DNA from: Escherichia coli
GTDB taxonomy: Bacteria > Pseudomonadota > Gammaproteobacteria > Enterobacterales > Enterobacteriaceae
Assembly (NCBI RefSeq): GCF_003334815.1
Contig: NZ_QOWO01000001.1
Length of the DNA stretch: 64,000 bases
Reading direction: 5' to 3' (one strand)
A program made the position numbers and the translations under genes. The notes below the pieces were generated by a model that had not been told where the DNA came from, searched no databases, and saw only the letters and a program-made list of their open reading frames with translations. Within the stretch, counting starts at the first letter, position 1. Each line of letters begins with the position of its first letter. This document shows, piece by piece, positions 13,300 to 52,780 of the stretch.

Positions 13300-13485
13300 A
13301 ATACCCGATCTTCTGCGCATCCTCGCGACTAATGACAACCCTAACCCAGCTCTATGTGGGTAAAGCCTCTCATTAGCCGCGCGAACCTCTGCAACGGAAG
13401 ATCATTCATAGCAACAATACATTAGTTTCCAGTGAATTGCTGCCGTCAGCTTGAAAAAAGGGGCCACTCAGGCCCCCTTTTCTGA
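13300..13485 (+). ncRNA. sraG: Probable SraG (PsrO) sRNA, antisense to the pnp leader; boundaries approximate
   Basis: Placed from recall of an sRNA in the rpsO-pnp intergenic region opposite pnp; the shared hairpin at 13454-13482 could terminate a plus-strand transcript. Exact ends not determinable here. Confidence 0.3.
13454..13482 (-). terminator. rpsO Rho-independent terminator (hairpin usable on both strands)
   Basis: Minus strand AGGGGGCC-TGAGT-GGCCCCT followed by TTTTTT, directly after rpsO stop. Confidence 0.85.
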
Positions 13486-13497
13486 AACTCGCAAGAA

Positions 13498-13863
<366 letters not shown>

Positions 13864-14860: not shown

Positions 14861-15261
14861 TAGTCCTCCTTGCTGTCGTCCGGGTTAACACGACGTTCTT
14901 CGTCATGTTTGACCACGCTGGTCACCAGGTTTGACATGCGCATCCCTTCAACCAGAGAGTTGTCGTAGAAGAAGGTCAGTTCCGGCACGATACGCAGGCG
15001 CATCGCTTTCCCCAGCAGGCTGCGGATGAAACCAGAAGCTTCTTGCAACGCTTTGATGCCCGCTTTAACCGCGTCTTCATCTTTGTCGTTGAGGAACGTC
15101 ACATATACTTTGGCATACGCCAGGTCGCGAGACATTTCGACACCGGAAACGGTGGTCATCATGCCCAGGCGAGGATCTTTAATTTCACGCTGCAGGATGA
15201 GAGCGATCTCTTTTTGCATTTCCTGCGCTACGCGCTGCGGGCGACCAAATTCTTTCGCCAT
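14860..15261 (-). CDS. rbfA: Ribosome-binding factor A
   Basis: ORF track 14860..15279; start trimmed to [11 protein letters not shown] (133 aa); stop overlaps truB start by 1 nt. Confidence 0.93.
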
Positions 15262-15274
15262 AATAAATTCTCCT

Positions 15275-15303
15275 GACAAAAAAGGGGCTGTTAGCCCCTT
15301 TTT
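15275..15303 (-). terminator. Rho-independent terminator between infB and rbfA (likely partial read-through attenuator)
   Basis: Minus strand AGGGGCT-aac-AGCCCCT followed by TTTTTTGTC. Confidence 0.7.
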
Positions 15304-15337
15304 AAAATTAATTTCAGGTGGAAGGGCTGTTCACGTT

Positions 15338-15405
15338 GACCTGATAAGACGCGCCAGCGTCACATCAGGCAATCCATGCCGGATGCAGCGTAAACGCCTT
15401 ATCCC
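15338..15405. repeat. Pair of REP elements downstream of infB
   Basis: GACCTGATAAGACGCGCCAGCGTCACATCAGGC and GCCGGATGCAGCGTAAACGCCTTATCC. Confidence 0.7.
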
Positions 15406-15424
15406 GCATGGAACCCTAAAAACC

Positions 15425-18097
15425 TTAAGCAATGGTACGTTGGATCTCGATGATTTCGAATACTTCGATCACATCGCCAGTGCGGACGTCGTTGTAGTTC
15501 TTAACGCCGATACCACATTCCATACCGTTACGGACTTCGTTAACGTCATCTTTGAAGCGGCGCAGGGACTCCAGCTCGCCTTCGTAGATAACCACGTTGT
15601 CACGCAGAACGCGGATCGGGTTGTGACGTTTAACCACACCTTCGGTAACCATACAGCCTGCGATGGCACCAAATTTCGGCGATTTGAACACGTCACGAAC
15701 TTCCGCCAGACCGATAATCTGCTGTTTCAGTTCCGGAGACAGCATACCGCTCATCGCCGCTTTCACTTCGTCAATCAGGTTATAGATGACGGAGTAGTAA
15801 CGCAGATCCAGGCTTTCCGCTTCAATCACTTTACGTGCAGAGGCATCAGCACGTACGTTAAAGCCAACCAGGATGGCGTTGGACGCCGCAGCCAGGGTGG
15901 CGTCGGTTTCGGTGATACCACCTACGCCAGAACCGATGATCTTCACTTTAACTTCGTCAGTAGACAGTTTCAGCAAGGAGTCGGAGATCGCTTCGACAGA
16001 ACCCTGTACGTCTGCCTTCAGGACGATATTCACTTCGTGAACTTCGCCTTCGGTCATGTTGGCGAACATGTTCTCGAGTTTAGATTTCTGCTGACGCGCC
16101 AGTTTAACTTCGCGGAATTTACCCTGACGATAGAGTGCAACTTCACGCGCTTTCTTCTCGTCACGTACAACGGTAACTTCATCACCCGCAGCCGGTACGC
16201 CGGACAGGCCGAGGATTTCCACCGGAATGGACGGACCCGCTTCCAGCACTTCCTGACCCAGTTCGTTACGCATCGCACGAACACGACCGTATTCGAAGCC
16301 ACACAGAACGATATCGCCCTTGTGCAGAGTACCTTCACGTACCAGAACGGTAGCAACCGGACCACGACCTTTATCGAGGAAGGATTCGATAACCGCACCG
16401 CTCGCCATACCTTTACGTACCGCTTTCAGCTCCAGAACTTCCGCCTGCAGCAGGATAGCGTCCAGCAGTTCATCGATACCGGTACCCGCTTTCGCAGATA
16501 CGTGTACGAACTGGCTTTCACCGCCCCACTCTTCCGGCAGGATGCCGTACTGGGAGAGTTCGTTCTTAACGCGATCCGGATCAGCTTCTGGTTTATCGAT
16601 CTTGTTCACTGCAACCACCACCGGTACCTGCGCCGCTTTCGCGTGCTGGATTGCTTCGATGGTCTGCGGCATCACACCGTCGTCGGCAGCAACAACCAGG
16701 ACTACGATGTCCGTTGCCTGCGCACCACGAGCACGCATTGAAGTAAACGCGGCGTGCCCCGGGGTGTCCAGGAAGGTGATCATGCCGTTTTCAGTTTCAA
16801 CGTGGTATGCACCAATGTGCTGGGTAATGCCGCCCGCTTCGCCAGAGGCCACTTTCGTTGAACGAATGTAGTCCAGCAGAGAGGTTTTACCGTGGTCAAC
16901 GTGACCCATGATGGTCACAACCGGCGCGCGCGGTTCAGCCGCAGCACCCGTGTCACGGTCGCTCATTACCGCCTCTTCCAGCTCGTTTTCACGACGCAGG
17001 ATAACTTTATGGCCCATCTCTTCAGCAACCAGCTGTGCGGTTTCCTGATCGATAACCTGGTTGATGGTTGCCATTGCGCCCAGTTTCATCATCGCTTTGA
17101 TGACCTGAGAGCCTTTAACCGCCATCTTGTTCGCCAGTTCGCCAACGGTGATAGTTTCGCCGATCACAACGTCACGGTTAACGGCCTGAGCAGGCTTCTG
17201 GAAGCCTTGCTGCAGCGAAGAACCTTTACGTTTTCCGCCTTTACCGCCACGTACTGCTGCGCGTGCTTCTTCACGATCAGCTTTTGATTCAGCGTGTTTG
17301 TTGCCTTTCTTCGGACGCGCTGCTTTCGCGTTACGACCACGGCCACGGCCGCCTTCGACTTCACGATCGCTTTCGTCTTCTGCCTGGCGAGCATGTTGAG
17401 AAGTAGTGACGTGATAATCGCTGGAATCTTCAGTCGGTTCCGCGTTATCAGTCCATTTGTTTTCTTCCGCCATACGACGTGCTTCTTCAGCAACGCGACG
17501 TGCTTCTTCTTCGAGTTTACGACGCGCTTCTTCTTCAGCTTTACGCTTGAGCTCTGCAGCTTCCTGCTCACGGCGGGCTTTTTCAGCCTGGGCGTTTTTA
17601 GTCATATCGTCTTGTTGATTGCTCACTTTGTCTTTTTCCGCAGCTTCACGTTTCGCTTGTTCAGCAGCTTCACGCTTAGCTTGTTCTGCGGCCTCACGTT
17701 CAGCTTTTTGTTGCGCCTCGCGTTTAGCCGATTCTTCTGCCTCACGACGGGCTTGCTCTTCCGCTTCACGCTGCGCTTGCTCTTCCGCTGCAAGGCGTTC
17801 AGCCTCTTGCGGATCGCGTTTCACAAAGGTGCGTTTCTTGCGGACTTCGATTTGTACCGATTTGCTTTTTCCACCGGTACCAGGAATGTTAAGGGTGCTG
17901 CGTGTTTTACGTTGCAGCGTCAATTTGTCCGGGCCTGAATTTTTCTGATTCAGGTGGTCAATCAAAGTCTGTTTCTCTTGTGCAGACACAGAGTCGTCAG
18001 CAGACTTCCGGATACCTGCATCAGCAAATTGCTGTACCAGGCGTTCCACGGAGGTCTGTCGCTCTGCGGCCAGCGTTTTAATCGTTACATCTGTCAT
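15425..18097 (-). CDS. infB: Translation initiation factor IF-2 (alpha form; internal in-frame starts for beta at GTG 17624-17626 and gamma at ATG 17603-17605)
   Basis: ORF track 890 aa; G-domain motifs [17 protein letters not shown]; internal starts at codons Val158 and Met165 checked against sequence. Confidence 0.97.
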
Positions 18098-18121
18098 GCT
18101 GTTCCTTCCTGCTACAGTTTA

Positions 18122-20089: not shown

Positions 20090-20145
20090 GCCCACCCCCA
20101 AGACATAAAAAAAGGGCCTAAAGCCCAGTTATTCTGTAGTCAGAT

Positions 20146-20171
20146 AACAAAAAACCCCGATAAATCGGGGC
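20146..20171 (-). terminator. Rho-independent terminator/attenuator between metY and rimP
   Basis: Minus strand GCCCCGAT-tt-ATCGGGG followed by TTTTTTGT; a second weaker GC hairpin plus T7 lies at 20107-20126. Confidence 0.7.
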
Positions 20172-20295
20172 TTTATATAACTGAACCCTATAACCGCAAC
20201 TGCGGTCTGGAGCACTTTCCAGAAGGATTTTTTCAAATCCCACTACGAAGGCCGAAGTCTTCACAGTATATTTGAAAAAGGACTCTAAGGGAAAG

Positions 20296-20372
<77 letters not shown>

Positions 20373-24154: not shown

Positions 24155-24241
24155 TGGTACCGAGGACGGGACTTGAACCCGTAAGCCCTATTGGGCACTA
24201 CCACCTCAAGGTAGCGTGTCTACCAATTCCACCACCTCGGC
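24155..24241 (-). tRNA. leuU: tRNA-Leu (GAG anticodon)
   Basis: Reverse complement reads GCCGAGGTGGTGGAATTGGTAGACACGCTACCTTGAGGTGGTAGTGCCCAATAGGGCTTACGGGTTCAAGTCCCGTCCTCGGTACCA, 87 nt. Confidence 0.95.
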
Positions 24242-30892: not shown

Positions 30893-30926
30893 AAAAAAAT
30901 ACCGACCCGGGTACAAGTCCCAGGTC
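30893..30926 (-). terminator. graL: Hairpin plus U-run in the greA leader (probable terminator generating GraL short transcripts)
   Basis: Minus strand GACCTGGG-ACTTGTA-CCCGGGTC then GGTA and TTTTTTT, about 95-130 nt upstream of greA ATG. GraL assignment from recall. Confidence 0.5.
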
Positions 30927-31045
30927 AGCTACAATTCACATTTTGATAGTCATTTTACCCTGAAGTTCCCGAAGGGTCATCGTTTACTTTATAGGGCGTT
31001 GCGCCGTAGTATGACGGCTCGATTCCAGGTTGTTAGCGCGAGATT

Positions 31046-52659: not shown

Positions 52660-52780
52660 GTGCGGCCTGAAAAACAGTGCTGTGCCCTTGTAACTCATCA
52701 TAATAATTTACGGCGCAGCCAAGATTTCCCTGGTGTTGGCGCAGTATTCGCGCACCCCGGTCTAGCCGGGGTCATTTTTT
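52660..52780 (+). ncRNA. arcZ: ArcZ (RyhA/SraH) Hfq-dependent sRNA, convergent with arcB
   Basis: Sequence GTGCGGCCTGAAAAACAGTGCTGTGCCC...GCGCACCCCGGTCTAGCCGGGGTCATTTTTT matches recalled ArcZ (121 nt) with terminal hairpin CCCCGGTCTAGCCGGGG plus T6; 3' end overlaps arcB stop. Confidence 0.9.

Follow-up and report, generated by a model that had tools for sequence, protein, structure and literature searches.

The infB gene of Escherichia coli contains a stretch of coding DNA that repeats itself at intervals of 24 nt, next to two start codons internal to the gene and opposite long open reading frames on the other strand. Such a locus raises the question of what is actually being repeated, the DNA or the protein that it encodes, and of whether the repeats, the internal starts, and the antisense frames call for any element beyond the gene itself. 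The locus was studied here within a 64,000-nt stretch of an E. coli genome (contig NZ_QOWO01000001.1), referred to below as the window. The answer, in which we place high confidence, is that this is a known feature: a charged helical linker of IF2 that is built from repeats, with two translation starts in an open spacer and with rare gain or loss of whole units. The repeats, internal starts, and antisense frames can all be explained by well-studied features of infB, with no new element. The polymorphism in unit number, of which we found no description in the literature, is a modest addition to what was already known.

In the window, infB occupies positions 15,425-18,097 on the minus strand (reading from 18,097 down to 15,425), with nusA upstream and rbfA downstream, and the open reading frame list gives a product of 890 amino acids, IF2-alpha. 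A preliminary description of this DNA, made from the letters alone, had identified the gene product as IF2, and this has been borne out. An 851-nt segment (17,250-18,100) is 100% identical to infB of E. coli K-12 and of many other strains, and this region is annotated as infB in all 5426 of the 5426 complete E. coli genomes searched. Pfam searches with IF2-alpha found an IF2_N domain at residues 1-51, IF2_assoc at residues 56-94, and a second IF2_N domain at residues 314-364, which is the architecture of an IF2 orthologue: an N-terminal IF2_N, the IF2-associated region, and another IF2_N before the GTPase domain. Residues 95-313, repeats included, gave no Pfam domain match.

Two repeat blocks and the spacer between them

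The repetition is apparent when the DNA of codons 96-205 is compared with itself. Nucleotide identity at a lag of 24 is 0.572, versus 0.358 +/- 0.028 in 2000 codon shuffles, none of which reached the observed value (z = 7.6). Lags of 48 and 72 also exceed the shuffles (z = 5.4 and z = 3.2, respectively), and no other multiple of three stands out across these codons. The protein follows the same rhythm, with an amino-acid identity of 0.47 at lag 8 versus about 0.13 at other lags. Tandem Repeats Finder reported arrays of period 24 at 17,482-17,545 (2.7 copies), 17,632-17,706 (3.1 copies), and 17,733-17,789 (2.4 copies), along with one of period 21 at 17,462-17,509. A repeat search of the plus strand recovered six successive copies at 24-nt spacing across 17,612-17,788, each 61-77% identical to the reference copy. 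Coding repeats of 24 nt, or 8 amino acids, are thus a real property of this region, as had been surmised from the letters.

The layout of the repeats turned out to be different from the one first described, a single array over residues 100-200 with 17,500 as its lower coordinate. When the codons are arranged in a register of eight, infB contains two coding arrays with a 24-nt period. Block A (17,627-17,794, minus strand; codons 102-157) consists of seven units of 24 nt, each encoding eight residues of the type R-E-A-x-E-x-A-K, and its limits rest on the Tandem Repeats Finder arrays, the 24-nt spacing, the codon layout, and the unit changes found among strains. Block B (17,462-17,545, minus strand; approximately codons 185-212) contains units of both 24 and 21 nt, as judged from Tandem Repeats Finder and from strain alleles that differ by -24, -21, and +21 nt. 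The repeats therefore run about 40 nt past 17,500, down to 17,462. The two blocks are split by a non-repetitive spacer of codons 158-177 (17,567-17,626, minus strand), which is evident in the codon layout and has the same length in 25 of 25 alleles taken from different strains.

The first and eighth codons of this spacer are the two internal starts: an in-frame GTG at codon 158 (17,624-17,626, minus strand) and an in-frame ATG at codon 165 (17,603-17,605, minus strand), exactly where the preliminary description had placed them. Three isoforms of IF2, with masses of 97.3, 79.7, and 78.8 kDa, are known to arise from in-frame starts (PMC3334882; PMC12297416). The del2/3 allele, which abolishes the short forms, combines the changes g474c (GUG to GUC) and t494c (AUG to ACG) (PMC3334882), and in the sequence at hand nt 474 of the CDS falls on position 3 of codon 158 and nt 494 on position 2 of codon 165. 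Retapamulin ribosome profiling (Ribo-RET) has likewise revealed a peak at an internal infB site. The use of GTG158 for IF2-beta (IF2-2) and of ATG165 for IF2-gamma (IF2-3), which had also been proposed for this DNA, is thereby supported by published mutations in precisely these codons. Since the internal starts lie between the two blocks, block A is found only in IF2-alpha, and block B is carried by all three isoforms.

The least-structured stretch of the infB mRNA, as measured by the minimum free energy (MFE) of sliding 60-nt windows, spans both internal starts (CDS nt 443-517; 17,581-17,655, minus strand). The two 60-nt windows over this stretch have an MFE of -2.7 kcal/mol, versus a gene mean of -14.2 +/- 4.2 kcal/mol, and 3.4% of all infB windows are at -6 kcal/mol or higher. 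We considered the idea that the repeat itself provides unstructured mRNA that aids internal initiation, and rejected it: windows over the repeat have MFEs of -14 to -16 kcal/mol, close to the mean for the gene, so that the open part of the message is the A-rich spacer, not the repeat. Neither internal start is preceded by a strong Shine-Dalgarno match in the 25 nt before it. In the mechanism favoured here, ribosomes would start at GTG158 and ATG165 as well as at codon 1, yielding IF2-alpha, -beta, and -gamma, with the internal initiation taking place in a short, A-rich, and weakly structured spacer.

A repeat of the protein or of the DNA

The 24-nt period could be a property of the DNA or a consequence of the protein, and these were distinguished with a protein-only null model, in which the amino-acid sequence is held fixed and synonymous codons are permuted among positions with the same residue. 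For block A, the observed lag-24 identity of 0.722 is slightly above the expectation of 0.686 +/- 0.018 (p = 0.04). Identical codons occur at 18 of 33 same-residue positions, versus 15.5 expected (p = 0.20), which is not above chance, and block B shows no excess over the null at all. Even the two units with the identical amino-acid sequence REAAEQAK use different codons at five of their eight positions. The 24-nt DNA periodicity is thus largely explained by the protein repeat, with synonymous sites close to random between units, and this argues that the units are old and degenerate and are not a recent minisatellite. The two REAAEQAK units may have undergone some gene conversion, or may stem from a younger duplication, which would account for the marginal excess in block A.

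The same data bear on the strongest of the rival explanations, namely that the region is a young and active DNA minisatellite (a coding VNTR), in which recent duplicates are kept alike by slippage or gene conversion and the periodicity of the protein is a by-product. Strains do differ in copy number, and in recurrent ways (see below), as a minisatellite would predict, and the small excess of lag-24 identity in block A points the same way. Against this stand the identity of only 61-77% between units and the codon usage just described, together with the stability of the array: about 99% of the 5426 genomes have the same number of units, and most relatives among the enterobacteria, even those at about 75% identity, share the 7-unit length. 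We therefore regard an active minisatellite as quite improbable.

The comparison between species is a rough one, the protein search having returned mostly partial IF2 proteins. Arrays of the form R-E-A-E-E-K/Q-A-K/Q/R were found in such partial proteins from Enterobacterales and from other gamma-proteobacteria. Most close relatives have a distance of 64 residues from an RKKRTFVK anchor to the motif KVSNQ, the value that corresponds to seven units, and others have 32, 56, or 72, so that the differences among close relatives are multiples of 8 residues. In genera further away, this distance takes other values.

A linker made of 8-residue units of the R-E-A-x-E-x-A-K type accounts for the 24-nt period in the DNA. 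In this preferred explanation, a repeat of the protein, the periodicity would be maintained at the protein level as a single helix resembling those of the ER/K type, and its old units would have drifted at their synonymous sites.

Unit number among strains and the antisense frames

The preliminary description had also suggested that the copy number of the repeat may vary between strains. This proved true, albeit rare, in a search of 5426 complete E. coli genomes. An evenly spaced sample of the matches to the wild-type 851-nt query contained only full-length sequences, the rare alleles falling between sampling steps, and a short query of 363 nt gave uninformative identity bands, with megablast splitting the alignments. 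Artificial alleles were used as queries instead, with one unit deleted or duplicated in each block, such that natural variants would rank first. These searches find only changes near the edited units, and an aberrant sequence from strain Nissle, when used as a query, gave further variants. The resulting census is a lower bound, with about 34 records that are less than 99% identical to the window left out. From these matches, 25 loci were retrieved and compared at the level of codons.

In-frame gains or losses of whole units were found in about 56 of the 5426 genome records (approximately 1%), of which about 44 are losses and 12 are gains. Thirty of these records belong to one clone (Esc1-29 and CNR20191027), leaving roughly 26 distinct strains. 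All of the length changes in the alleles that were read consist of whole units, are in frame, and fall within one block or the other. Across strains, the number of units in block A lies between 5 and 9, and block B, with changes of -8, -7, or +7 residues, measures 35 to 50 residues. These unit changes fully explain the CDS lengths of 874, 882, 883, 897, 898, and 906 codons given in the annotations.

Much of the variation involves the REAAEQAK units, which are two in number in the window (units a and b). Alleles with a single REAAEQAK exist in four DNA forms (unit a, unit b, an a/b chimera, and unit a with a CAG codon), those with three exist as a,b,b, as a,b',b, and as a,a,b, and one allele with four has the order a,b,a,b. 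Elsewhere in block A, one allele has a duplicated REAQQKAE unit, another has a duplicated AEEQAQRE unit along with the arrangement a,b,b, a third has lost one of the first two units, and a fourth has lost REAEESAK plus REAQQKAE. The block B alleles have lost EEEARRKL, have lost EEARRVA, or carry EEARRVA twice over. Alleles of the same length are found on different flanking haplotypes, with the one-copy and three-copy alleles occurring on four each. Different DNA junctions and different flanking haplotypes for the same allele indicate that the events recur. We infer that whole units are occasionally gained or lost in frame through slipped-strand mispairing, or unequal recombination, between similar units (61-77% identical).

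In 25 of 25 alleles, the two internal start codons and the final unit preceding them are preserved without change. With units changing upstream and the starts retained, the IF2-beta start becomes codon 142, 150, 166, or 174 in variant strains, and residue numbering that places this start at 158 does not hold for them. Each unit gained or lost would shift the length of the linker by about 12 Å, provided that it is helical, and would leave the internal starts untouched. It is conceivable, if unlikely, that the rare alleles are not neutral, in that block A tunes the tether between the N1 subdomain and the ribosome-bound body of IF2-alpha, and that the recurrence of alleles reflects niche selection and not mutation alone. 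Were this true, tether length could affect the early coupling of transcription and translation, or the cold-induced condensation of IF2.

A literature search found no published report of variation in the number of infB repeats. In a 1997 survey of 10 clinical isolates, the N-terminal domains of IF2 were reportedly invariant in infB, which would be consistent with a variant frequency of about 1%. The same invariance could be taken to mean that the length variants are artefacts of sequencing or assembly and that the true E. coli infB does not vary in length. One probable artefact was encountered: the allele of Nissle 1917 in NZ_CP007799.1 was rejected as unreliable and ascribed to faulty assembly, being divergent, flagged as a pseudogene, and present as five matching places, and the infB of another Nissle assembly is of normal length. 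As an account of the variants in general, this explanation is very unlikely to be correct. The same alleles are found in assemblies made independently, from strains that differ in host and country, with shared RefSeq protein identifiers (WP_000133053.1 in five strains, WP_040062784.1 in three, and WP_000133055.1 in three), and one allele is identical across 30 separate assemblies of a single clone. Moreover, the changes are exact, whole-unit, and in frame, unlike long-read errors of the homopolymer type, and the repeats are short (24 nt), imperfect, and easily spanned by single reads.

Two open reading frames on the plus strand, one of 214 amino acids (17,294-17,938) and one of 109 amino acids (17,619-17,948), lie antisense to the repeats. 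The preliminary description had called both of them spurious and had held that the repeats create them. Both are present in the open reading frame list, and they are judged spurious here as well, the longer from its low-complexity translation and from codon shuffles and the shorter from the shuffles. The repetition, on the other hand, is not their cause. Shuffling of codons removes the order of the repeats and keeps the composition, yet in 2000 shuffles of infB codons 50-268 the longest stop-free antisense run averaged 166 +/- 31 codons. Runs of at least 109 codons occurred in 2000 of 2000 shuffles, and 214 codons were reached in 4.4%. An even longer antisense frame, of 571 amino acids, is found at 15,026-16,741, over non-repetitive infB. 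Given that shuffled codons keep long antisense runs and that the 571-amino-acid frame lies off the repeats, the frames owe their existence to a codon composition that is poor in T: the sense strand has 37 T among the 345 bases of codons 96-210, and the AT skew of the plus strand is about -0.6. That either frame is a real overlapping gene, with the repeat region constrained by coding on both strands, is extremely improbable: although the 214-amino-acid frame does fall in the upper tail of the shuffles, this composition normally gives long stop-free runs, which continue over the rest of infB, the translations are low-complexity strings of Ser, Ala, Arg, Phe, and Cys, and the strain indels follow the unit register of infB.

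The IF2 linker among known systems

Residues 96-216 of IF2, which include both blocks and the spacer, consist of 26% Glu, 24% Ala, 14% Arg, 10% Gln, and 10% Lys, so that 53% of the residues are charged and 6.6% are large and hydrophobic. Pairs of opposite charge at i/i+4 are abundant, with 18 acid-to-base and 20 base-to-acid pairs versus 8 +/- 2 in shuffled sequences. AlphaFold2, run on the single sequence, predicted one continuous helix over residues 96-216 with pLDDT values of 85-94; prediction of this kind favours long helices for such sequences, and the model is taken as supporting evidence only. In the picture that we favour, this charged, Ala-rich, helical linker would join the N1 subdomain (residues 1-50), which according to the literature binds NusA, to the rest of IF2.

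The segment has been described as the flexible linker of IF2 Domain I (PMC12297416). By NMR, residues 98-157, a repetitive and hydrophilic sequence, are helical, and they are mobile by relaxation (PMC4611024). This helical, repetitive part of the flexible Domain I linker goes back to Laursen et al. 2003/2004, as summarised in the same source (PMC4611024). The helix predicted here agrees with that of Laursen et al., and the prediction extends further, through the spacer with the internal starts and block B to residue 216. Against a helical linker, a preprint from 2025 treats the entire N-terminal region of IF2 as intrinsically disordered, and links this region to growth in the cold and to condensate formation (PMC11838494). 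In the literature found on the IF2 linker there is no mention of the 8-residue register, the second block, or the polymorphism in unit number. The catalogue of natural, in-frame length alleles, with block A ranging from 5 to 9 units, is a small addition that could supply natural variants for work on the Domain I linker with respect to NusA contact, cold growth, and condensates.

Charged single alpha-helices of the ER/K type serve as rigid spacers in other proteins, such as eukaryotic myosins and caldesmon. The IF2 linker resembles them in its high content of E, R, and K, its few hydrophobic residues, and its enrichment in i/i+4 pairs of opposite charge, as well as in its long, uninterrupted predicted helix. 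Like the sequences by which this class is recognised, the IF2 segment is rich in E, K, and R, has the i/i+4 pairs, and lacks a hydrophobic seam. Unlike the classic motifs of the E4K4 type, it is also rich in alanine and glutamine (24% and 10%), and a further point of difference is its reported mobility by NMR relaxation. Our search found no literature that links IF2 to the ER/K-helix class.

At the DNA level, the obvious comparison is with VNTR and contingency loci that change by slipped-strand mispairing. The infB repeats share with these loci the recurrent gain and loss of whole units at repeat junctions, the chimeric units at the breakpoints, and a unit number that is polymorphic within the species, although the variants make up only about 1% of genomes. 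The differences are considerable, however. The infB units are 24 or 21 nt, multiples of three, such that no switching of frame takes place and the variants stay in frame with the annotated CDS intact. The identity between units (61-77%) is well below that of high-identity, head-to-tail repeats, and infB is an essential housekeeping gene, neither surface-related nor phase-variable.

The closest match is the E. coli infB/IF2 system itself, with its isoforms IF2-alpha (IF2-1), IF2-beta (IF2-2, from GUG158), and IF2-gamma (IF2-3, from AUG165). The gene in the window is the same gene: the start codons and the order of domains match, no difference from the known infB was found, and the window carries the common allele of block A, with seven units.

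Loss of repeat units in IF2

Deletion of the unit EEEARRKL from block B, the array of 24- and 21-nt units at about codons 185-212 of infB, is common to 30 assemblies, namely Esc1-Esc29 and CNR20191027 (L005 among the fetched strain loci, H125-H153 among the genome search matches). Each of these genomes is about 5.156 Mb in size, and together they look like a single clone that has been sequenced repeatedly; the raw count of variant genomes is inflated by these 30 assemblies. The representative of a partial E. coli IF2 cluster from the protein search (P0002, 603 member sequences) measures 126 residues from anchor to anchor, versus 134, which is one 8-residue unit fewer, and unit-loss alleles are therefore found in the wider protein collection as well.

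A divergent infB piece in one Nissle 1917 assembly

One assembly of E. coli Nissle 1917, NZ_CP007799.1, carries an infB piece (L021, 5112336-5113222) that bears a pseudogene flag ("partial in the middle of a contig") and has a divergent block A, given as a sequence of 40 residues. There are five matching places in this record, and the infB span of a second Nissle assembly, NZ_CP022686.1, is of the normal 851 nt. The piece in NZ_CP007799.1 probably stems from an assembly error or from foreign DNA.

Antisense reading frames and RNA elements around infB

The codon composition of infB generally yields long antisense ORFs, as is demonstrated by an ORF of 571 aa (15026-16741, + strand) opposite the GTPase and C-terminal part of the gene. 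This ORF far exceeds the antisense ORFs of 214 and 109 aa in length and overlaps no repeat.

Directly 3' of the infB stop, the gap ahead of rbfA contains an Rfam match to naRNA4 (CssrE, a nucleoid-associated noncoding RNA; 15338-15408, - strand), which scores 68 bits versus a gathering score of 59.5. Elsewhere in the window lie the greA leader (30894-31015, -), the ArcZ sRNA (52660-52767, +) and tRNA-Leu(GAG) (24155-24241, -). The metY-rimP-nusA-infB-rbfA-truB-rpsO-pnp region itself contains its known RNA elements: tRNA-Met (metY; 20296-20372, -), the rimP leader (20107-20207, -), the S15 leader (13711-13825, -) and SraG (13310-13481, +).
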